Shown piece after piece: positions 24,019 through 49,483 of a stretch of DNA of 64,000 bases. The first letter of the stretch is position 1, and every line of letters begins with the position of its first letter. This stretch comes from a bacterium (GTDB lineage Bacteria; Patescibacteriota; Patescibacteriia; UBA10025). Position numbers and translations under genes: made by a program. The notes under the pieces are model-generated. The model had not been told where the DNA came from. It did no database searches and saw nothing but the letters and a program-made list of their open reading frames with translations. Where the stretch lies: assembly GCA_021815445.1 (NCBI GenBank), contig JAKAGM010000001.1:3447-67446 (forward strand), in the 5' to 3' direction.

Positions 24019-24044
24019 GATCGAGGTTTGGGAATTAGAGTAGT

Positions 24045-24070
24045 GTATCAGTGTGTTAACACATTGATAC
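24045..24070. repeat. 26-bp GTTAAC-centred palindrome, copy 1
   Basis: GTATCAGTGTGTTAACACATTGATAC. The right arm overlaps a TTGATA-18 nt-TATAAT promoter (24064-24093). Confidence 0.85.
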
Positions 24071-24239
24071 ATACATAAAACTGTTTTTATAATGCATTGA
24101 CACTTGTGTGGGCGACTGCTACCATTGTCTAACCCTTTCGTACATTCGACATTCAAAAACATAACTACCAATAACAGTGCAGCCCTTTATATGTAGGCAA
24201 CACAAATTCTTAGTCCACGTTCTGAAGAAGGAGGATCAC

Positions 24240-24611
24240 ATGTCTAGAAAAGCGAAGTTCTGGATAACCTTAGTGCTTGGTCTCATCTACACCCTGTTTG
24301 GGTGGATGATGACCCATCATTTGCTGGCGGTCATCCTGACCTACGGCGCGCAGTCGGTGATTGCTGCGATCATCGCCGCGTCGTGCAACGAGCGCAATCA
24401 GCGTATCGGCGGCTGGTGGACGTTTGCCCAGGGTATGGCTTTCTGTGTCGTCGGCGGTTTCATCACTGGATTGCTCTACGTCTGGATCGCCTGCGGTCTC
24501 GCGGCAGTTGTCTACGGCGCTGGGATCGGAGGGATCAAGCTGGAAGAAGAGTTTCAGGAGAATCCTTCGATTCCAAAAGCACAACTGGGCATATGTTCAG
24601 TGTGGTGCTGA
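24240..24611 (+). CDS. small four-TM membrane protein, unknown function
   Basis: ATG at 24240 is preceded by GAAGGAGGA. The protein is hydrophobic and 123 aa long. The track start at 24177 has no RBS. Confidence 0.55.
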   Translation: MSRKAKFWITLVLGLIYTLFGWMMTHHLLAVILTYGAQSVIAAIIAASCNERNQRIGGWWTFAQGMAFCVVGGFITGLLYVWIACGLAAVVYGAGIGGIKLEEEFQENPSIPKAQLGICSVWC

Positions 24612-38551: not shown

Positions 38552-38579
38552 AAAGCGTTGAAAAAGGAATAGCGTGGGT

Positions 38580-38605
38580 ATATCAACGTGTTAACACATT
38601 AATAC
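38580..38605. repeat. 26-bp GTTAAC-centred palindrome, copy 2
   Basis: ATATCAACGTGTTAACACATTAATAC followed by ATTTCG, 24 nt upstream of the 38630 ATG. Confidence 0.8.
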
Positions 38606-38629
38606 ATTTCGAAAGACAAGAACAGATCC

Positions 38630-39280
38630 ATGAAAGCAAAAATACCGCTCACAAACACCACGGTTGCGGTCGTATGGTCGTTTGTTGCTGTCTTTTACGC
38701 CATAATCTTCACTACATCAAAGTATTTATTCTGGCAGAAACTTGGTGAAACAAGCATTTTGTTTGCTTTTATCATTATACTTTTACCATACTTTGTCGTA
38801 CTCTTTTTTATTGTTCGTTTTGTGAGAGAAGGGGTAGAAATAACGCGCAGAATTCGGGCAGACCTAGGGGAAGCGGCAGAATACGCCTCAGGTGACACGA
38901 TTACTTCACGGATGTATTTTATTATTCCTGCGCTCCAGGGCAAGTATGCAATCCCTGAGGAAAACGTGCTGACGTATTATCAAACCCATATCCAGGATAT
39001 CAAAACGCAAGCCGCAGGGTTTATGCATTTTGCTATTCTTCTGACCGTTTCAGGTGTGGCGATATCTCTTCGGGTAAATTCAGTTTCAGGAACTCTATTC
39101 GCGATTCTTATCGCTGTCATTGCTCTAGGTATGTGGGGGTGGGCCTTTGATTATCGCAGTATCGAGGCATTGCGTACAAGGCGATTCACGGGATTTTTGA
39201 GAAAGAATCCTAAACTCTTTGCTGTTGGGTTTCTGAGTTTAGTATGCGCGATGGTTTTACTGGCTGTAGTCGGGTATTAG
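38630..39280 (+). CDS. hypothetical membrane protein (216 aa)
   Basis: Four to five hydrophobic segments and no recognisable motif. Palindrome copies 2 and 3 flank the gene. Confidence 0.5.
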   Translation: MKAKIPLTNTTVAVVWSFVAVFYAIIFTTSKYLFWQKLGETSILFAFIIILLPYFVVLFFIVRFVREGVEITRRIRADLGEAAEYASGDTITSRMYFIIPALQGKYAIPEENVLTYYQTHIQDIKTQAAGFMHFAILLTVSGVAISLRVNSVSGTLFAILIAVIALGMWGWAFDYRSIEALRTRRFTGFLRKNPKLFAVGFLSLVCAMVLLAVVGY

Positions 39281-39320
39281 TGTACTTTGAGGGCCATGAT
39301 GTAGCGTCGCATATGTTAGT

Positions 39321-39346
39321 GTTCCGATGTGTTAACACACTAGTAC
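39321..39346. repeat. 26-bp GTTAAC-centred palindrome, copy 3
   Basis: GTTCCGATGTGTTAACACACTAGTAC followed by ATTTCG. The left arm is degenerate. Confidence 0.75.
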
Positions 39347-39508
39347 ATTTCGTAAATAAAAAATTCCAGCCAGCCTTTTATGTGCAAACAGGGGTTGTTT
39401 TTGTTTCAGTAAGCGTATAAACTACCGGCGGTAGAGATGGTATCGCGATGTAGTGTTTTGAGAATACATCAAGGGGTCATGAGCAATGTTTTATGCTAAC
39501 ATGATAAT

Positions 39509-40990
39509 ATGAAAACACGCCGATCAGGCATTCTCCTCCACCCGACTTCGCTCCCCAGTCCGTACGGCATTGGGGACTTTGGGCCGGAGGCGTACAGTTT
39601 CGTGGATTTTCTGAGAAAAGCCGGGCAAAAGTTCTGGCAGGTTTTGCCGCTCAGAATACCCGATGAAACCGGCTCCCCGTACGCGTCGTCGTCTGCGTTT
39701 GCCGGTAACTGGCTCTTGGTCAGTCCGGATCTTTTGGTCGCGCAAGGGCTGTTGCCTGAATCAGAACTCCCGCGCGAACGAAAGGTCGGTTTTGTGAATT
39801 ATGACAACCTGATTCACGACAGGAAAAATATGCTTGACCGTTCTCTGCGGTATTTCGACGATTCGGTATCCGAACGGCTTAAAAAAGCCTTCTGGGAATT
39901 TAAAAAGCGCGAGTCGTGGTGGCTGAGGGATTTTTCCCTTTTTATGGCCATAAAGGATTTTTTTGGAGGCAGATCGTGGCATCGATGGTCCGACGGTTTG
40001 GCGCGAAGAAATCCAGATACGCTCCGGTTATGGGCAAAAACTCTTGGAAATGGAATGAGAATATACGAGTACGGGCAGTGGCTTTTTTTCAGGCAGTGGG
40101 AGAGTTTGCGGGCGTATGCAAATCGTCGCGGAATCCAGATCATCGGTGACGTGCCGTTTTTTGTGCGTCACGACAGCGTGGATGTGTGGAGCCATCGCAG
40201 GTTGTTCATGCTTGATAAGAGGAATCTCCCGCGGGTCGTTTCCGGCGTCCCGCCCGACTATTTCAGTTCCCGAGGACAGATATGGCGCGACCCCCAGTAT
40301 GACTGGAAGGCGATGGAACAGGGGCAATTCACATGGTGGGTACAGCGTCTCGGGATGGTGCTGCGGCTGTATGATAAAGTCAGGCTTGACCATTTCCGCG
40401 GGTATGAAGCAGTCTGGCACATCAGACGGGGGAGTCTGACAGCGCGAAACGGGCACTGGTCTCCCGTGCCTGGCGATAAACTCTTTACTCGCATGTGCAA
40501 ATTTTCGAAACATATGCCGTTTATTGCGGAAGATCTCGGATTGATAACTGACGACGTAACCGCATTGCGGAAAAAATTCGGCTTTCCTTCAATGCGCGTC
40601 CTCCAGTTCGGTTTCTCGCTCAATGCCGGAAATCCGCACGCCATCAAAAACCTGCCTCTGAACGCGGTGGTCTACACAGGGACGCATGATAACAATACCG
40701 CGCAAGGGTGGATTCTCGATGATGCGCCCGCAAATATTCGACGGCACGCTCTCGCCGTGCTTAAAGCCGACAAGCGCACTTTCGCATGGAAGCTTATCCA
40801 AGCAGGGATGAAGTCCCGGGCTGATACGTTCATTGCGCCGCTCCAAGATGTGCTCGGTCTGGGCTCGGAGGCACGCATGAATACCCCATCGACAAAACGA
40901 AAAAATTGGCGGTGGAGACTCAAGCCCGCAGTCCTGACGGACCAGATTGCAAAGAAATTAAGGAAACTCAGCACAGATTCGGGCAGGTAA
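39509..40990 (+). CDS. malQ: 4-alpha-glucanotransferase (amylomaltase, GH77)
   Basis: RRSGILLHPTSLPSPYGIGDFG N-terminus, plus DHFRG, AEDLG and YTGTHDN catalytic-region motifs. Confidence 0.92.
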   Translation: MKTRRSGILLHPTSLPSPYGIGDFGPEAYSFVDFLRKAGQKFWQVLPLRIPDETGSPYASSSAFAGNWLLVSPDLLVAQGLLPESELPRERKVGFVNYDNLIHDRKNMLDRSLRYFDDSVSERLKKAFWEFKKRESWWLRDFSLFMAIKDFFGGRSWHRWSDGLARRNPDTLRLWAKTLGNGMRIYEYGQWLFFRQWESLRAYANRRGIQIIGDVPFFVRHDSVDVWSHRRLFMLDKRNLPRVVSGVPPDYFSSRGQIWRDPQYDWKAMEQGQFTWWVQRLGMVLRLYDKVRLDHFRGYEAVWHIRRGSLTARNGHWSPVPGDKLFTRMCKFSKHMPFIAEDLGLITDDVTALRKKFGFPSMRVLQFGFSLNAGNPHAIKNLPLNAVVYTGTHDNNTAQGWILDDAPANIRRHALAVLKADKRTFAWKLIQAGMKSRADTFIAPLQDVLGLGSEARMNTPSTKRKNWRWRLKPAVLTDQIAKKLRKLSTDSGR

Positions 40991-43665: not shown

Positions 43666-44109
43666 TCAGTAGTCCAGCGCTTGCCTGATCCGCCGGTCAA
43701 CCTCGCGTTTCTTAATGGTTTCGCGCTTATCCTGTTTCTTCTTCCCGCGCGCCAAACCCAGCTCAACCTTGATCAAGCTACCCTTAGTATAGACAGAAAG
43801 CGGAATAAGTGTCAAGCCTGCCGAAGCCATCTTCCCGATCAATGATTTGATGTCCTCACGCTTCACAAGCAGCTTCTTTTCTCGGTCAGGATCCTCGTGG
43901 GATTCTTTCGAAGCACGCTGGTATCTCGCTATATGGCAGCCGATCAGCCAGAGTTCATTGCCGCGCATGCTCACATAACTTCCCATCAGAGTACAGTTGC
44001 CCAGCTTGACCGACTTTACCTCTGCGCCTCTCAATACAATACCGGCCTCAATTTTTTCGAGGATTGTGTAGTTGAAATAGCCTTTTTTGTTCTTAGCGAG
44101 GGTAGGCAT
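43666..44109 (-). CDS. smpB: SsrA-binding protein SmpB
   Basis: KNKKGYFNYTILEKIEAGIVLRGAEVKS...GLARGKKKQDKRE. Confidence 0.93.
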   Translation of the reverse strand: MPTLAKNKKGYFNYTILEKIEAGIVLRGAEVKSVKLGNCTLMGSYVSMRGNELWLIGCHIARYQRASKESHEDPDREKKLLVKREDIKSLIGKMASAGLTLIPLSVYTKGSLIKVELGLARGKKKQDKRETIKKREVDRRIRQALDY

Positions 44110-44184
44110 AGGAATATGAGTAGTATACAGGATTTTTGAACTGTGGATAATCGGGGTTGACGTCCGAAGTTGTTTGGGTGTAGT

Positions 44185-44210
44185 GTATCAATGTGTTAAC
44201 ACACTAATAC
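44185..44210. repeat. 26-bp GTTAAC-centred palindrome, copy 4
   Basis: GTATCAATGTGTTAACACACTAATAC, preceded by GTAGT as in copy 1, 22 nt upstream of the yerC-like ATG. Confidence 0.85.
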
Positions 44211-44232
44211 ACCTCAGCATGTACCCCATTTT

Positions 44233-44586
44233 ATGCCAAAGCGTTCGATAGACTGGAACAAAAGAAAAACAAGCGATCTCTTTGAAGCGGTTCTCGCGCT
44301 TAAAACGCAGGATGAGTGCAGGCGTTTTTTCCGTGACCTGTGCACGCTTGAGGAAATTGCCGCACTTGCCGACAGGTGGCAGATGGTCAAAATGATGGTC
44401 CAAGGATATTCATACCGCGATATATCGGCGAAACTCAAAGTGAGCACAACGACTGTTGCCCGTGTCGCGCAGTGGTTCACACGAGGCGAAGAGGGTTATC
44501 GGCTCGTGGTTAAGAGACTGGGGCTCACCAGACTGCCTGAAGCAAAAATTTCTTCAAATCATTATCACCACGCTTCTCTTCACTGA
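44233..44586 (+). CDS. TrpR-related YerC/YecD-family DNA-binding protein
   Basis: ECRRFFRDLCTLEEIAALADRWQMVKMMVQGYSYRDISAKLKVSTTTVARV, a Trp-repressor-like HTH. Confidence 0.8.
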   Translation: MPKRSIDWNKRKTSDLFEAVLALKTQDECRRFFRDLCTLEEIAALADRWQMVKMMVQGYSYRDISAKLKVSTTTVARVAQWFTRGEEGYRLVVKRLGLTRLPEAKISSNHYHHASLH

Positions 44587-44628
44587 AGAGGTGTCGTGAT
44601 GTGGTAGACATTTCACCGCATCCGGAGA

Positions 44629-44656
44629 AACCCCTTCAGTGCAAGAGGTTTTTTTT
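44629..44656 (+). terminator. intrinsic terminator after the yerC-like gene
   Basis: aacccctt-cagtgc-aagaggtt stem (7 of 8 bp) followed by a T8 run. Confidence 0.65.
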
Positions 44657-44874
44657 GATACATGCGTACCTTGAGAAAATCTTGAGACACGATGGGACGT
44701 GATGACAACCGTTCGCACCGAGAGAGGTGTATGTTGATGCGACAACATAAACATACCCCCTTCTCGTCATTGAGAAGAGCTTGTCGGACTGCTCCTGCAA
44801 TCCGAGACTGTCACCGTCCGGTGGCCGCCCTCACTCTCGAGCTTGCTCATGTTCATTTCATTTGGAGGTGTACC

Positions 44875-45972
44875 GTGTCAAAGCACGAAGCCAGCACGCA
44901 AACAGTGTTCGATCCAATCGGCCAGCGCTATGAAGGCCTCGCCAGGCCGTCAGGACTTCGATACGGCATTATTGAGGTAACAACCCGGTGCCAACTCGCT
45001 TGCCCAGGATGCTACATGGTTCGACGTGGCGCGCTCAATCACGGCAGTTTGTCTTTTGACCAGGCGGTCGGCGTACTTGACCGGTGCTGCGAATATACTG
45101 GCCGAGAGCTCGAAACAATGGACATCCTCGGCGGCGAGCCGCTCCTGTGGCCGCCGCTCAAAGAATACATCGTCGAGCTACTCAATCGCGGCATCAAACC
45201 TTGGCTTTTTACCAACATGCTGACGATCACGCCGTCACTGGCCCGGTGGCTCTTTGAGCGGAAGGTGCATATCACCGGCAAGCTGAACGTGGATCCGTCT
45301 GATCCTGCTCAGCTCTCTGTCCAAGCGGCGATGATTGGCCGGAACGAGCGCGTAGCCCGCCGAATGGCCGCGGCAATTTCTGTTTGGCTTGGAGTCGGAT
45401 ATCGCAACCCATTATTCCGGCTCCAAAATCTGGTTCGTCAGGCAAACATCGGATTTGTGCCCGATTACTACCGCTGGTGCCTCGAACAAGGGATTGGGAC
45501 GGATCTTGAACTCATGGGTTCCGGCGAAACGGTAGGCGCGGAGTACTATGCGGTGGCGCCGACTCCGAAACAAGTCGCCCGCATGATAGAAGCGATCCAT
45601 GCGGTTCGGCGCGAGTACGGTTTGCCGGAAGCTGAAGTGCTGATGCCCCACGTCTTTGGATCCTGCCCTTTTTATGACAAGGGGCTCTACTTCGCCGCCG
45701 ACTGTTCAATCCGTGCCTGTTCCAACTCCACGGTCACGCTTGCACACTTAAGCGACCAGGATCCGATCCGGAAAGCCTATGAGTCGCCGCTCATCTGCCG
45801 CCGGCTCAGCCTGTGCCGTGAGGTGGTAGGAGAGCCATGCCGTTCGTGCGATCGGTGGGAACGGTGCCGCGGTGGCTGCCGGGCAACCGTGGAAGGGATG
45901 GGCGACCCGTACGGCGGATATACGCTTTGTCCGCTTCCTTACCTCGGCAATGGTAAGCCCAAAGTCGGCTAG
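44875..45972 (+). CDS. radical SAM enzyme with C-terminal SPASM domain
   Basis: CQLACPGC (CX3CX2C) and the C-terminal CRSCDRWERCRGGC (CX2CX5CX3C) plus additional Cys residues. GTG at 44875 follows GGAGGTG. Alternative in-frame ATG starts exist at 44731 and 44737. Confidence 0.8.
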   Translation: MSKHEASTQTVFDPIGQRYEGLARPSGLRYGIIEVTTRCQLACPGCYMVRRGALNHGSLSFDQAVGVLDRCCEYTGRELETMDILGGEPLLWPPLKEYIVELLNRGIKPWLFTNMLTITPSLARWLFERKVHITGKLNVDPSDPAQLSVQAAMIGRNERVARRMAAAISVWLGVGYRNPLFRLQNLVRQANIGFVPDYYRWCLEQGIGTDLELMGSGETVGAEYYAVAPTPKQVARMIEAIHAVRREYGLPEAEVLMPHVFGSCPFYDKGLYFAADCSIRACSNSTVTLAHLSDQDPIRKAYESPLICRRLSLCREVVGEPCRSCDRWERCRGGCRATVEGMGDPYGGYTLCPLPYLGNGKPKVG

Positions 45973-46045
45973 GCAGCACGCAATAGTAGCGGGGGGCTGG
46001 AATAATGAACTTCTAAAGTTCCGGCCCCCCTATTTTCTCTCGACT

Positions 46046-46588
46046 ATGCGTCAAAAAATTATTACAACAGCTCAAAAGAAATTACTAGAGCTTAACCGCC
46101 GATACAACGGGTTCATGGCAGTCATCCTTGATAACTGGCGCGGTTATCGTTTTATTTACGACACTGTCGATGTTCGACGATGCCAGAATAATTGCACGCA
46201 GTGTCCGCTTTTCCGATTGTTAGCAAATGAAAAAGACGGCGCTTTTACAGCTCGCCTTCTCCGGGCGTCGCCTGCCGACCGCAGACTGTTCGGTCCCCAA
46301 AAGTATCTCAATTGTAAAACAATTTCGCAGTACCGAATGTGTTATAAGAATTTTATTGCTCAAAAAATAGCAACGCAAAAAGAATTGACGGCCGAATTAC
46401 GGCTTGTTCAAGGACTCAGGGTGCTCTACGCCAAAGAGCGAGATCCCTTGCTTGTCGAACAAGAGATAAAAAGGAATATTATCAACTTTTCTGCTCGATG
46501 GTCGCCACTCTCAGCAGCAGCCGGCAAGAGCCGGCGCAAATCATTTGACAGCTTGTTGAAAAAGGATTACACTTTATCCACATTATGA
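46046..46588 (+). CDS. hypothetical protein (180 aa), unknown family
   Basis: ORF refined to the ATG at 46046. It follows a GGGGGGCTGG...CCGGCCCCCC hairpin (45991-46030). CQNNCTQC motif. Confidence 0.5.
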   Translation: MRQKIITTAQKKLLELNRRYNGFMAVILDNWRGYRFIYDTVDVRRCQNNCTQCPLFRLLANEKDGAFTARLLRASPADRRLFGPQKYLNCKTISQYRMCYKNFIAQKIATQKELTAELRLVQGLRVLYAKERDPLLVEQEIKRNIINFSARWSPLSAAAGKSRRKSFDSLLKKDYTLSTL

Positions 46589-46689
46589 ATCTAACTTCAC
46601 TCCAACAGAAAAACCTGAAGATGTTCCGCTGGAACTTTCGTCACTATGGCGGCAGGGTTTCTTTACTGTTTGGAGTAGATATGGCGTAA
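46585..46689 (+). CDS. candidate small ORF (34 aa), possible modified-peptide precursor
   Basis: Its ATG overlaps the upstream stop (ATGA). The peptide is MNLTSLQQKNLKMFRWNFRHYGGRVSLLFGVDMA. An intrinsic terminator lies 30 nt downstream. It is absent from the ORF track because it is shorter than 60 aa. Confidence 0.35.
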   Translation: MNLTSLQQKNLKMFRWNFRHYGGRVSLLFGVDMA

Positions 46690-46719
46690 TAACGAATTCC
46701 AAAATATTCCACAGAAAGA

Positions 46720-46747
46720 AACCTCAAGCTGCCGCTCGAGGTTTTTT
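46720..46747 (+). terminator. intrinsic terminator closing the radical-SAM operon
   Basis: aacctcaag-ctgccg-ctcgaggtt stem followed by a T6 run. Confidence 0.65.
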
Positions 46748-46772
46748 GGTAAATAATTAATTTTAAGAAAGT

Positions 46773-47663
46773 ATGAACACACGCACGATTTTCATCGGAA
46801 CTATCGGCACATTCCGCGTCGAGATCCCGGTTATAGAAATAGGCTCAGGAGAGCCGAAAGGTTTGATTGTGGCCGTTCAACACGGGGGTGAGCTAAGCCC
46901 GTTATGGATTATCAAAGAACTTATCAACGCTCCCCCACGTTCGGGCGCCATGACGCTAATTCCCGTAGCAAATCCATTCGGATTCGTGTTTGGGGAGCGA
47001 AATGAGGTCATCGAACAGAAAGATCCGAACCGCCAATATCCGGGGAGGGCAAGCGGTGATTTCTCAGCCAGGATCGCGGATAAAATTTTTTCCCTGGCAA
47101 AGGAGGCTGACTTCGTTGTCGACCTGCACACGTTTACGCGCCAAGCTCCATTCCTTGTCGGCTATGAACGGGGCGGGATATCAGACGGTAACGATGTGGA
47201 AAAACTCATCCAACTGCTAGGGCCGGATGTCGTATGGACGGTTGATGAAAAGCAAGGAGAGGATAGGCGGTTTGCCGGAAGTTTTGACGGCGCTCTGGGG
47301 CGGGAGGGCGTCCCGTCGGTATTCATTGAAATGCCGAACTACCAGATGATTTCACAGGATCTCATTGTCCGTATCGCTTCCGGTATCAGAAACGTATTCG
47401 AAGGGTACTCGTCGCCTTTTCAAAAAGGGAAGGAGATCAAAAGGTTCTCGGCAAAGTATCTGTACGCGGATGATGCTGGGATCTTTGATCCGACGGTGAA
47501 ACCGCTTGAAACAGTTGTTGCGGGACAGGAGATTGGCACGCTTTATCTTCTGCCAAATTTCAAAAAGCAAAAGGTGATCACGCCCATCGGAGGGACGGTA
47601 CTCACGGTAAAAGGAAAGGATGTGATAAGGACAGGGACAAAACTTGCCAGTATCGGAGTGTAA
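46773..47663 (+). CDS. succinylglutamate desuccinylase/aspartoacylase (AstE/AspA) family Zn-hydrolase
   Basis: VQHGGE (H..E metal site), NRQYPG, VVDLHT, and a C-terminal hybrid-barrel-like tail. Confidence 0.7.
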   Translation: MNTRTIFIGTIGTFRVEIPVIEIGSGEPKGLIVAVQHGGELSPLWIIKELINAPPRSGAMTLIPVANPFGFVFGERNEVIEQKDPNRQYPGRASGDFSARIADKIFSLAKEADFVVDLHTFTRQAPFLVGYERGGISDGNDVEKLIQLLGPDVVWTVDEKQGEDRRFAGSFDGALGREGVPSVFIEMPNYQMISQDLIVRIASGIRNVFEGYSSPFQKGKEIKRFSAKYLYADDAGIFDPTVKPLETVVAGQEIGTLYLLPNFKKQKVITPIGGTVLTVKGKDVIRTGTKLASIGV

Positions 47664-47720
47664 ACCGCACGAAACAGAAAACAACAGAGAACGTTCACAA
47701 TTCACGAAAGGGGAGTGGTC

Positions 47721-49097
47721 ATGAGACCAACTCAAGAGCTGTTCAGCGATTTGCTGGCACAGGGATGCTCGTTTCGGTATCAGCCCGAGCGTTTCTGCGA
47801 ACTCGAAGGCGGAGGGCATCCGTATCCTTCACTCACACGTACAGTTTCCACACCTTCCGGCGACATGATCGAGGAGCTTATCCAGCCGGTGCTGCAACCG
47901 ATTGTCCTCGACCAACGTCTTGTCGCCAATGTACGGAAAGCTTCGGCGGCGTGGCCAACGTTTCTCGGGGTCCAACTCGAGCTTTTCCGCGCGGCGCAAA
48001 AAGGCGAGCTCAGCGGATCGGACGTCGCACTCATTAGGGGTATGTGCACCGAGCGGGAATGGAAGTGCGGACTCGTAGAGCCCGGCTACCGGACGATTCA
48101 CCCGTTTATCCGCCTGGACGCCGTGTTGACCGATGACGGTTTTAAAGTCATCGATATCAATTCGACGCGTCCGGCCGGCGTAGGGGACCTGCTCGGTTTC
48201 CACGTGGCGATGAACGGCAGTGATGGTTCGGGCATCAAACCGTTTCCCATCGGGTGCTCATTCAGCCGCATCGTGTCTTCGTGCGTGGGCGACTGGGCCT
48301 CGGCAAAACATCTGCCGGGCGAGTCGATTCCCGTTGATATTGTCGTGCGGCACACGGACGGTGACTGGAACAATTTCCGGAACCTGAGCCGCCAGCTGGC
48401 ACGTTCAGGCCTGAATACCCGGCTCATCGAACCAGATGAACTGAGGAGCGGAGAGCCAAGCGCCATTGTGCGGGGTCGCATCAAGGAAGGCGACCCGGCG
48501 TATGCCATCTTGCAGCAGGGTTACCCGAATGAGCGCTGCGTGATGTCTCCGCTCTATCGCCGTTTCCTCGGAAACAAAGTGTGGATGTATCTTTTCCGGA
48601 TTCCGCCGTTCTCCGAGCATTTCAAGCGGGTAATGGGCGAGGCATACCAGCTTTTTGACCGTCTGTTCCCGCCCATAGGGCTCTTTTCCGGCACCTCCGT
48701 TCGTTTCCCGGAAGGCTTCCTGGATATCGCGAAACTCGATCGGCAAGAATGGGTCCTCAAAGATCCGGCGAGCTCGTCAGGGCGCAGGATGTATCTCGGG
48801 TACCTGATGGGAAAGAAAAAATGGGCCGATGCGCTTGCGCAGATGCAGGACGGCTGGATCGTGCAGCGTTTCTACCGCGCGACCGAAAAACTTGCAGTTG
48901 CCGGTCCGTGTGGCGAGCCGATTGAAGAATCGCTCTTCACGAAGTACGGCATCTACATTTTCGGTTCGGAGCTTGCCGGACTGGAATTCAACGCCCGGAA
49001 AATGCCCGTTGTCCATGGTGCGCGGAATACATACTGCAACGCCGTGTACGAAACCGCAGGCCCCTCATCGTGCGCAGGAGAATTGGGGGCTCAATGA
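47721..49097 (+). CDS. glutathionylspermidine-synthase-like ATP-grasp amidoligase
   Basis: ATG lies 6 nt after GGGGAG. FKVIDINSTRPAGVGD, LGNKVWMYLF (compare LSNKAILPLLW in the GSP-synthase family), and EWVLKDPASSSGRRMYLG. Confidence 0.6.
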   Translation: MRPTQELFSDLLAQGCSFRYQPERFCELEGGGHPYPSLTRTVSTPSGDMIEELIQPVLQPIVLDQRLVANVRKASAAWPTFLGVQLELFRAAQKGELSGSDVALIRGMCTEREWKCGLVEPGYRTIHPFIRLDAVLTDDGFKVIDINSTRPAGVGDLLGFHVAMNGSDGSGIKPFPIGCSFSRIVSSCVGDWASAKHLPGESIPVDIVVRHTDGDWNNFRNLSRQLARSGLNTRLIEPDELRSGEPSAIVRGRIKEGDPAYAILQQGYPNERCVMSPLYRRFLGNKVWMYLFRIPPFSEHFKRVMGEAYQLFDRLFPPIGLFSGTSVRFPEGFLDIAKLDRQEWVLKDPASSSGRRMYLGYLMGKKKWADALAQMQDGWIVQRFYRATEKLAVAGPCGEPIEESLFTKYGIYIFGSELAGLEFNARKMPVVHGARNTYCNAVYETAGPSSCAGELGAQ

Positions 49098-49483
49098 TCC
49101 CCATGGTCAGCAAGTATTGGCTTGTCCGCGTTTGGGATATTAAAGATGTCCTGAGCGACTACGGGTTGACACCTGAGCAGACTGCGACTGTATGCGGTAC
49201 TATCGTGAACAACACGTGCATCCGCTTTACAATACAGTCGCAGTATCAGTGCGGAGTTGGCGAACCTCACGTAGTACCTTTTACCGGCGAGTACGTGGGT
49301 GTGTTTCCCGCCTTGATCCGATCGTCGCTCCTCGAGCACCATGTCATCCTCCGGCGATACAGGAGAATGATATTCCGACTCTGGAATCGGAAAGTCGCTA
49401 CTATGTATCTCGGGACGCTGGTGTGCGCGGAGCACTTTACGTACGTTAAGTCTATTCCCCTGGACTATTGGGGACCATGGTAA
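49094..49483 (+). CDS. hypothetical protein (129 aa) translationally coupled to the ATP-grasp gene
   Basis: ATGA overlap with the upstream stop. No recognisable motif. Confidence 0.45.
   Translation: MIPMVSKYWLVRVWDIKDVLSDYGLTPEQTATVCGTIVNNTCIRFTIQSQYQCGVGEPHVVPFTGEYVGVFPALIRSSLLEHHVILRRYRRMIFRLWNRKVATMYLGTLVCAEHFTYVKSIPLDYWGPW

Follow-up and report, generated by a model that had tools for sequence, protein, structure and literature searches.

The operon and its features

This work concerns a predicted operon in a stretch of 64,000 nucleotides (the window) from a bacterium of the Candidate Phyla Radiation (CPR; GTDB lineage Patescibacteriota, Patescibacteriia, UBA10025), taken from contig JAKAGM010000001.1 of GenBank assembly GCA_021815445.1 (positions 3,447 to 67,446, forward strand). 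The first-pass annotation of the window had drawn three genes between two intrinsic terminators, namely a radical S-adenosylmethionine (SAM) enzyme with a SPASM domain, a 180-aa protein (protein D in the following) and a 34-codon open reading frame (ORF), and regarded them as a possible locus for a ribosomally synthesized and post-translationally modified peptide (RiPP). It turned out that both hairpins with their T runs are real, and so are the radical SAM gene and the gene of D. However, the left hairpin (44629-44656) appears to be an internal attenuator terminator rather than a boundary of the operon, the 34-codon ORF is not conserved, and a yerC gene upstream had been missed from the unit. 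The predicted unit is a three-gene operon of yerC, radical SAM/SPASM and D, larger than the three genes drawn between the hairpins, and its main features are listed below.

44157-44162, + strand: promoter-like -35 box TTGACG upstream of yerC, part of a putative promoter
44184-44211, + strand: 28-bp palindrome TGTATCAATGTGTTAACACACTAATACA upstream of yerC, a candidate operator
44233-44586, + strand: yerC/hisR-like gene for a TrpR-family repressor of 117 aa, whose tail ends in SSNHYHHASLH
44692-45972, + strand: maximal ORF of the radical SAM gene
44864-44868, + strand: Shine-Dalgarno sequence GGAGG, 6 nt ahead of the GTG of the radical SAM gene
44875-45972, + strand: radical SAM/SPASM gene, 365 aa, GTG start, without a RiPP recognition element (RRE)
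45664-45930, + strand: SPASM region with seven Cys, within the radical SAM gene
45991-46030, + strand: G6...C6 intercistronic hairpin with a 13-bp stem, followed by TATTTTCTC (-28.7 kcal/mol, z = -3.6)
46046-46588, + strand: gene of protein D, 180 aa, pI 10.2, no His
46181-46204, + strand: codons of C46-x3-C50-x2-C53 of D
46313-46315, + strand: codon of C90 (in LNCKT) of D
46716-46747, + strand: terminator-like hairpin with T run at the end of the operon (-15.3 kcal/mol, z = -3.2)

Conservation of the cassette

To describe the surroundings of the enzyme in other genomes, we used a sample of loci from GTDB species genomes (31) and metagenomes (75), which comprises 88 distinct loci and spans Peribacteria, Gracilibacteria, Magasanikbacteria, Buchananbacteria, Doudnabacteria, Kerfeldbacteria, Gribaldobacteria and Microgenomates. 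Conservation of the neighbours had been set beforehand as a test, and it turned out that D lies directly downstream of the enzyme gene in 65 of the 72 loci assessable for it and that 59 of 67 have a YerC-like gene upstream in the same orientation. Besides yerC and D, no neighbour is found in more than 8 of the 86 loci in which other neighbours were counted, and no linked protease or exporter/transporter is among those that recur. What recurs besides are housekeeping genes of related genomes, such as EF-G, RibD, IF3, ArgRS, PurB, HisRS and others. In 5 loci (L002, L040, L045 and relatives) PurB directly follows D, and in 4 loci (L010, L011 and L027 among them) the HisRS gene adjoins the cassette; as both arrangements are confined to related genomes, they hint only weakly at a link to purines or histidine. 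In the sequences surveyed, the radical SAM and D pair is found together solely in CPR bacteria.

The radical SAM/SPASM enzyme

Within the maximal ORF, the GTG at 44875 is the best-supported start, since it follows GGAGG with a 6-nt spacer and the N-termini of homologues begin within about 10 residues. The encoded protein has the radical SAM motif CX3CX2C (C39/C43/C46 in CQLACPGC, encoded at 44989-45012) and the seven Cys of a SPASM domain (C264-x17-C282, C322-x2-C325-x5-C331-x3-C335 and C352), including the C-terminal CX2CX5CX3C which had been noticed at first. All of these are invariant in 25 diverse homologues, and so are C71 and C202. For the SPASM pattern CX9-15GX4C the family consensus is CPFYDKGLYFAVDGxIRAC, and the window protein has Cys replacing that Gly.

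The classification by profile searches, suggested in the first-pass annotation, held in part. The protein matches Radical_SAM PF04055 marginally (29.9 bits, cut-off 29.5), while the SPASM model TIGR04085 stays below its threshold (17.4 bits, cut-off 27) and PF13186 was not reported for it; one homologue (P0092) carries PF13186. No function can be assigned from named families, as had been anticipated: the named NCBIfam radical SAM families gave 29 matches, all far under their cut-offs (best PqqE, 35.4 vs 381, and MftC, 35.1 vs 265), the anSME family TIGR03942 was not matched at E <= 0.01, and a profile search with the enzyme across all PDB sequences reached at best E = 3e-4.

The AlphaFold model of the enzyme (pLDDT 83, pTM 0.83) matches radical SAM structures at E values of 1e-12 to 1e-10 in Foldseek, the best ones being CteB, anSME, ChlB, SuiB, SkfB and PqqE with about 16% identity and TM-scores of 0.56-0.68. 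The core of the model starts at residue 30, residues 1-25 are disordered and about 30 residues precede strand 1, so there is no room for an RRE. The short N-terminus without RRE, proposed on the basis of the GTG start, is therefore supported by the Shine-Dalgarno sequence, by the starts of homologues and by the disordered residues. The enzyme is a member of the radical SAM/SPASM class in no characterised subgroup, and its RRE-less layout of 365 aa is, judging from the model, most like anSME.

Clustering at 90% leaves more than 250 members in the enzyme family. Identity to the window protein is 57-71% for the best 120, and among them all those with an organism name are Patescibacteria (Peribacteria, Gracilibacteria, Magasanikbacteria, Buchananbacteria, Doudnabacteria and Gribaldobacteria), in agreement with the CPR host named at first. 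In our judgement, such identity across phylum-level CPR lineages is unlike fast-evolving RiPP maturases. As for mobile elements, the sole match in PADLOC is a generic N-terminal radical SAM similarity to pVip and the sole match in PHROGs a generic similarity of the radical SAM domain; because both are merely generic, we see no defence or phage link of the locus, and the viral contigs searched contain no relative of the enzyme.

Two observations were made on related proteins. A distant second radical SAM/SPASM paralogue, with PF13186 and TIGR04085 above cut-off and no equivalog, lies directly upstream of yerC in four related loci (L008 2947-4071, L050 1257-2486, also L051 and L063). P0143 consists of the first ~135 residues of a family-type radical SAM protein joined directly to a full D, which is a deletion or an assembly artefact.

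The YerC/HisR-type repressor and its operators

The upstream gene is clearly a member of the TrpR family (Pfam Trp_repressor, 5.5e-24; NCBIfam TIGR02531 YerC/YecD, 87.4 bits vs a cut-off of 42.2). In Firmicutes, YerC/YecD is HisR, a histidine-responsive TrpR-family repressor (encoded by yerC in B. subtilis), which binds 20-bp palindromes with the consensus cacTTTAnnnnnnTAAAgtg, or TGTAnTArnnnnyTnTTACA in proteobacteria, and is often autoregulatory (PMC9413887). The known HisR regulons comprise his biosynthesis and histidine transport genes, and histidine has been shown as co-repressor only for the R. gnavus protein (PMC9413887). In the literature searched on YerC together with radical SAM, on SPASM proteins of Patescibacteria, on radical SAM and histidine biosynthesis in CPR and on queuine lyase, this HisR paper was the only relevant one.

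We found that CPR yerC genes are preceded by a TTGACA-type -35 box and then by HisR-type palindromes, for example TACTTTAGTTAACTAAAGTA in L022. Of 62 loci, 26 and 24, respectively, have the two published operator types ahead of yerC, compared with a background of 2-3%. The palindrome of the window, TGTATCAATGTGTTAACACACTAATACA, is of the TGTAnTA...TAnTACA type published for the HisR/TrpR family, and its count was reached in none of 100 shuffles. In L016 and L021, where yerC is distant, an operator lies directly ahead of the radical SAM leader.

The window contains further copies of the 28-bp palindrome (TGTATCAnTGTGTTAACACAnTnATACA), each overlapping a -10-like box.

24044-24071: precedes a 144-aa membrane protein (24177-24611), itself followed by a ComEC-like gene
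38579-38606: precedes a 216-aa membrane protein (38630-39280)
39320-39347: precedes the 4-alpha-glucanotransferase MalQ (39509-40990)

Because the same palindrome stands before two membrane-protein genes and malQ, the regulon of the YerC-like protein seems wider than the operon.

A predicted attenuator at the end of yerC

A terminator hairpin, AACCCCTTCTC-loop-GAGAAGGGGTT-TTT, is conserved 25-60 nt past the yerC stop codon in about 50 of 55 loci; a scan for hairpins with T runs placed a site in 53 of 55, a few of which are doubtful and about 50 convincing. It sits 35-110 nt upstream of the radical SAM start, with few copies elsewhere in 450 kb of loci. Its stem sequence is kept across lineages whose proteins are only 55-70% identical. 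We also considered the palindrome CCCCTTCTC...GAGAAGGGG as a DNA operator and rejected it, since a T run always follows and it covaries as RNA with the coding sequence.

The coding sequence in question is the YerC tail outside the Pfam domain, which reads (N)HH(H)N-x-S-S-x-x-(K/R)G-L-x before the stop codon. HH, HHH or HYHH is found 4-12 codons ahead of the stop in most YerC tails. The RNA for (E/G)-K-G-L, xGAGAAAGGGTTGx, ends 2-5 nt before the stop and is complementary to the left arm of the terminator, with a median z of -2.5 for this pairing versus shuffles. The layout fits that of attenuators of the classical his and trp type, with the His codons next to region 1 and the stop codon after region 2.

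The pairings were counted in a MAFFT alignment of 32 loci (A4), with slid pairings and 500 shuffles as controls. In the antiterminator helix (2:3), 89.3% of the cells are paired versus 43-64% for slid pairings, none of the 500 shuffles was as good, and 8 of 11 pairs show compensatory changes. The terminator helix (3:4) is paired in 88.3% with compensatory changes as well, and helix 1:2, formed by the N-S-S codons with region 2, in 75.2% versus 39-58% for slid pairings, though the alignment of region 1 is less certain. Tail and terminator arm read, for example, AAAAAGAGATTG/CAATCCCTTTTT in L059, AAAAAGAGCTTG/CAAGCCCTTTTT in L077, GCTAGGATGGGATTG/AACCCCCTCCTAGT in L012 and GCGGGGAGAGGATG/ATCTCCTCCTCGC in Peribacteria. 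Alignment columns 37-39 encode Gly, Glu, Arg or Lys depending on the locus, and the peptide 3' of HH varies radically (KGL, KKRL, RGERMV, ITSP), both tracking the terminator arm. Because the tail codons change in step with the terminator arm, selection seems to act on the RNA and not on the peptide.

In nine loci, where YerC is tail-less or no yerC was detected upstream, a separate leader ORF of 15-25 codons with HH is followed by the terminator, for example MNIISQKLHHQITSP, MNNQLQKFNHHNKDLE and, in L006, one ending in RVHHDNFFSPEKGLC before the stop. All nine have the HH, HHH or HYHH at the same distance of 4-12 codons from the stop, and HH is their only invariant peptide feature; L021 has a related short ORF with Y-H only. 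A covariance model built from A4 (R1) gave strong matches only ahead of radical SAM genes, including L006 and L047 (55 bits) and L043 (52 bits), which were not used for training.

The copy in the window itself has the following parts.

44560-44571, + strand: control codons CAT TAT CAC CAC (H-Y-H-H) in the yerC tail
44576-44590, + strand: region 1:2 hairpin CTCTTC-ACT-GAAGAG
44580-44596, + strand: attenuator region 2, TCACTGAAGAGGTGTCG, which can pair with the left arm of the terminator
44581-44583, + strand: control codon CAC in the yerC tail, followed by the stop codon TGA at 44584-44586
44626-44656, + strand: terminator hairpin AAACCCCTT-CAGTGC-AAGAGGTTT with T8 (regions 3 and 4), formerly taken as the left terminator
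44737-44790, + strand: probable relic of a second free-standing leader (MRQHKHTPFSSLRRA...), with neither stop codon nor T run
44758-44779, + strand: hairpin of the relic leader, CTTCTC-GTCATT-GAGAAG

Region 2 pairs with 44626-44641 at -17.0 kcal/mol in RNAduplex (z = -3.8), which was equalled by 3 of 1000 dinucleotide shuffles and by 3% of genomic windows; the pairing includes a stretch specific to the window, CACTGAAG/CTTCAGTG. When the RNA is masked as by a ribosome at the stop codon, the terminator folds, and when it is masked as by a ribosome stalled at the His codons, the antiterminator forms. Folding of 44620-44665 gives -10.9 kcal/mol.

The sequence from 44737 onward is probably a decayed second leader within the 288-nt leader of the radical SAM gene, as MRQHKHTPFSSLRRA resembles the L006 leader end RVHHDNFFSPEKGLC and the L009 tail AHHHNFFSSEKRLF. 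The relic is now in frame with the radical SAM ORF, and this accounts for the 426-aa protein (P0001) called in databases. Besides, a conserved GTTCTTTACA-like motif lies 10-20 nt ahead of the radical SAM Shine-Dalgarno sequence in the leaders of L007, L015, L017, L020, L021, L023, L025 and L026, the form in the window being GTTCATTTCA (44850-44868). Two further hairpins, GAAGTCCGC...GCGGAT and CCC...GGGAGAAC, are conserved between the terminator and this motif in Peribacteria and L023, and they match nothing in Rfam. A search of Rfam with 44100-46900 of the window gave no match at E <= 1, the His leader RF00514 included, and in the leaders of 8 related loci nothing reached the gathering score for the leader, only tmRNA and tRNAs being matched there.

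If there were no attenuation, the hairpins would be ordinary terminators between independent genes, and the HH...KGL tail would be kept for a reason at the protein level, such as metal binding. Hairpins do follow many genes in the window, the tails and leaders hold just 2-4 His codons, and the terminator of the window is weak (-8.5 kcal/mol for the hairpin alone) and so divergent that R1 did not detect it on the + strand at E <= 1. On the other hand, compensatory changes tie coding nucleotides to the left arm of the terminator, the tail is a separate mini-ORF with only HH conserved in nine loci, the distance from terminator to radical SAM Shine-Dalgarno sequence is 35-60 nt in most loci, too short for a promoter, and the stem sequence outlasts the divergence of the proteins. 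We consider this explanation highly improbable, and control of the operon by the attenuator together with the repressor very likely, as far as comparison of sequences can tell.

The same evidence bears on the RiPP reading, in which the HH ORFs or the YerC tail would be precursor peptides and the hairpin a leaky terminator that provides precursor in excess. The order of small ORF, hairpin and radical SAM/SPASM gene is typical of RiPP operons, the structural neighbours of the enzyme include CteB, SuiB, SkfB, ChlB and PqqE, and HH is the sole invariant of the peptides. But the sequence 3' of HH follows the terminator arm, which means that RNA pairing is selected and not a peptide, and the supposed precursor is fused to a 100-aa repressor in most loci. 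Neither the enzyme nor D has an RRE, neither a protease nor an exporter is linked, the regulator is of HisR type and D is depleted of His. A conserved precursor was not found either: when 30 loci of GTDB genomes (L002-L031) were compared, no small ORF in the cassette region turned out to be kept as a peptide. Thus the RiPP-like locus proposed at first is not supported. The cassette is probably not a classical RiPP cluster, and precursor peptides in the HH ORFs or tails are very unlikely.

We also thought of the tail codons (N, H, Y, D) as a queuosine-dependent sensor of NAY decoding, with the enzyme as a lyase for queuosine salvage. This idea was dropped, since only HH is invariant, H and Y are a single-base change apart and the regulator is of HisR type; its chance is slight.

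Expression signals within the operon

A Shine-Dalgarno core stands ahead of the radical SAM gene in 54 of 69 loci, and ahead of yerC and D in only 2 of 62 and 1 of 66. In the window, about 8 of 51 long ORFs have one at the first start codon. Since such sequences are rare before genes in this genome, the strong and conserved one of the radical SAM gene is exceptional. The G6/C6 hairpin between the radical SAM gene and D, pointed out at first, is real as well: a strong GC hairpin is present in this gap in 25 of 26 loci, about 60% with a T run, and its sequence is not conserved. With a Shine-Dalgarno sequence for the enzyme, none for D and a hairpin between them, the cell probably produces less D than enzyme, which speaks against a role of D as stoichiometric substrate.

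Protein D

No family was recognised for D in Pfam, NCBIfam, PADLOC or PHROGs, as the first-pass annotation had it, nor in a Pfam scan of 62 members of the D family, and a PDB sequence search with the D profile returned only noise. Its predicted structure is that of a well-folded small protein, with a confident fold, three strands and no barrel, which matches no solved structure. The suggestion that D is an RRE/PqqD-like partner for recognition of the substrate is not borne out, as D shows no RRE and no such fold. An exhaustive profile search yielded about 100 clusters of D at 50% identity. Among the 62 members used for conservation, W31 is invariant and D29, R35, C46, C50, C53, C90, K91 and E117 are conserved in at least 90%.

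The four-Cys signature of D, C46-x3-C50-x2-C53 and C90 in LNCKT, is probably a metal or Fe-S site, which could hold an Fe-S cluster or zinc. D as a mini radical SAM enzyme, suggested by CX3CX2C, was rejected because of the three strands without barrel and the loss of the motif in three members. One protein (P0214) has a C_GCAxxG_C_C 'redox protein' domain fused to a divergent D, which hints at a redox or metal context.

Histidine is scarce in the D proteins linked to the enzyme, with a median of 0.28% and 11 of 22 free of it, including that of the window, and the median pI of these proteins is 10. The enzyme has 1.4% His. Divergent D homologues stand alone in other small genomes, with neither a radical SAM neighbour nor a His leader; these mostly have 2-9 His each and are not basic. 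It is known that proteins made during starvation for an amino acid are depleted in that amino acid. The G+C content steps within the operon (44800-46600) from 56-62% in the radical SAM gene to 41-47% in D, which may reflect the Lys/Asn/Ile-rich composition of D, so that a separate origin is not required.

D could also be the substrate of the enzyme, which would then be a maturase that modifies D, for instance at C90 of LNCKT with a thioether or other crosslink, just as anSME modifies sulfatases and QhpD modifies QhpC. Strict adjacency of the two genes fits this idea, and so do the lack of an RRE in the enzyme, its fold, which is as near to anSME as to any other, and the predicted nature of D as a well-folded small protein; C90 is kept even in the three D proteins which have lost CX3CX2C. 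Against it, the expression signals suggest more enzyme than D, the opposite of what enzyme and substrate would require, the solitary homologues indicate that the fold works without the enzyme, and D has no C/SxPxR motif of the anSME type. We take this pairing to be improbable.

Neighbouring genes and other features

Further features are found at the end of the operon and downstream of it.

46585-46689, + strand: ORF of 34 codons, probably not a gene, without family match
46773-47663: AstE/AspA-family deacylase, downstream of the operon
47715-49097: 460-aa protein without family, downstream of the operon
49070-49483: 137-aa ORF, downstream of the operon

For the 34-codon ORF, tblastn of the cassette regions of the 30 GTDB loci found no homologue (best E about 1), and as it is not conserved, it should not be counted as a gene. 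The AstE/AspA-like gene and that of the 460-aa protein were considered as members of the operon and rejected, because they do not accompany the cassette in other lineages; nor does the 137-aa ORF.

Proposed regulation and function

We suggest the following course of events. Transcription would start at the yerC promoter, which is overlapped by the HisR/TrpR-type operator, so that the repressor regulates itself, and the last codons of yerC would act as a leader peptide. With ample His-tRNA, the ribosome would reach the stop codon and cover region 2, the terminator at 44626-44656 would form and transcription would end before the radical SAM gene. With scarce His-tRNA, the ribosome would stall on H-Y-H-H and cover region 1, region 2 would pair with the left arm of the terminator, and the antiterminator formed in this way would let RNA polymerase read through into the radical SAM and D genes. 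The enzyme would be a stand-alone radical SAM protein with two auxiliary SPASM clusters and without a peptide-recognition domain, and D an accessory partner for electron or cluster transfer or for delivery of the substrate rather than a precursor. The pair may perform a histidine-related task: it may salvage or supply histidine, or respond to histidine starvation in some other way. Here we infer histidine as the effector, and likewise the direction of regulation, the role of D, the chemistry and the substrate.

As a whole, we read the locus with moderate confidence as a CPR-restricted operon induced by histidine limitation, encoding an enzyme and its accessory protein D. A function of the pair in histidine supply or starvation is proposed only tentatively, at somewhat less than an even chance. 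Still less probable, and to our mind doubtful, is the more specific idea of a route of histidine acquisition, switched on by a repressor and an attenuator that would both sense histidine status. Its radical SAM step would produce or salvage histidine or an immediate precursor of it, or have tRNA-His or His-tRNA as its target. To our knowledge, CPR bacteria cannot make histidine themselves.

Several points weigh against this interpretation, beyond the few His codons and the weak, divergent terminator of the window described above. No histidine-related substrate is indicated by the present data. The closest solved folds are those of peptide- or protein-modifying enzymes, which makes a peptide or protein substrate plausible; the enzyme also falls in none of the well-characterised non-RiPP subgroups, membership in which would have contradicted the first-pass annotation, and this too leaves room for such a substrate. 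Three D proteins adjoin the enzyme and have lost the first three Cys, C90 being retained, which weakens the idea of an Fe-S partner. Since the operator also stands before unrelated genes, the repressor may act globally and respond to an effector that is not histidine.

The last point leads to a further explanation, a starvation effector which acts on the translation machinery. Histidine would then serve only as the sentinel amino acid of an auxotrophic symbiont, and the enzyme, with the basic D as its adaptor to RNA or the ribosome, would modify tRNA, rRNA or a ribosomal protein instead of supplying histidine. It would agree with the median pI of 10 of the linked D proteins, with YerC operators ahead of unrelated genes, with the very high conservation of the enzyme, which suggests a conserved macromolecular substrate, and with the recurring synteny with IF3-L35-L20, smpB, argS, EF-G and hisS in some lineages. 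However, that synteny is seen in no more than 8 of 86 loci and only in related genomes, D homologues that stand alone are not basic, and we know of no SPASM enzyme that modifies RNA. We therefore give this explanation a rather low probability.

Comparison with known systems

Radical SAM/SPASM enzymes, HisR repressors and leader-peptide attenuators are already known as classes. New are the enzyme subgroup, the D family, the CPR-exclusive distribution, the proposed histidine control of the pair and a repressor with the leader fused to its C-terminus.

Among enzymes, anSME/AtsB (PDB 4K36-4K39) is similar in being a single polypeptide of about 365 aa with CX3CX2C, a 7-Cys SPASM domain and no N-terminal RRE, and is one of the best Foldseek matches (E about 1e-12, TM-score 0.61-0.67). 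However, the identity is about 16%, no sulfatase or C/SxPxR substrate is near the window enzyme, its partner is a four-Cys protein and its regulation is probably by histidine. CteB, SuiB, SkfB, ChlB, PqqE and MftC share the superfamily and the architecture of auxiliary clusters, and a short ORF and hairpin upstream, whereas the window enzyme has no RRE, PqqD-like partner, conserved peptide, protease or exporter. In QhpD-QhpC, too, the gene of a SPASM enzyme adjoins that of a small Cys-containing protein, but genes of quinohemoprotein amine dehydrogenase are absent from the locus, D has no similarity to solved proteins and, judging from the expression signals, is the less abundant product.

As for regulation, HisR is likewise a YerC/YecD family protein with autoregulatory 20-bp palindromes of two published types, while the CPR repressor is linked to radical SAM/SPASM and D and carries a leader-like tail with His codons. 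The his, trp, pheA and thr leaders have the same tandem control codons, helices 2:3 and 3:4, probably also 1:2, and a U-tract terminator, whereas the CPR leader is usually the C-terminal tail of YerC and a free-standing ORF in other loci. We know of no earlier description of a leader peptide as the C-terminal tail of a full-length regulatory protein.

Conclusion

In conclusion, a conserved two-protein module of CPR bacteria is described for which the regulation alone points to histidine limitation, and this provides a testable hypothesis for an unassigned radical SAM enzyme. The covariation is evidence, at the level of sequence, for classical ribosome-coupled attenuation in CPR. The layout is unusual in that the leader peptide is fused to the repressor controlling the same promoter, and related lineages show the unfused state. 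D represents a new Cys-motif family with a confidently predicted fold and no solved relative. For genome mining, the locus is a caution that a SPASM enzyme with a small ORF and a hairpin alone does not make a RiPP cluster. CPR/Patescibacteria are regarded as dependent on hosts for amino acids, and hardly any of the protein families specific to them has an assigned function; if the route of histidine acquisition were true, it would be the first amino-acid-supply function peculiar to these 'auxotrophic' ultra-small bacteria.

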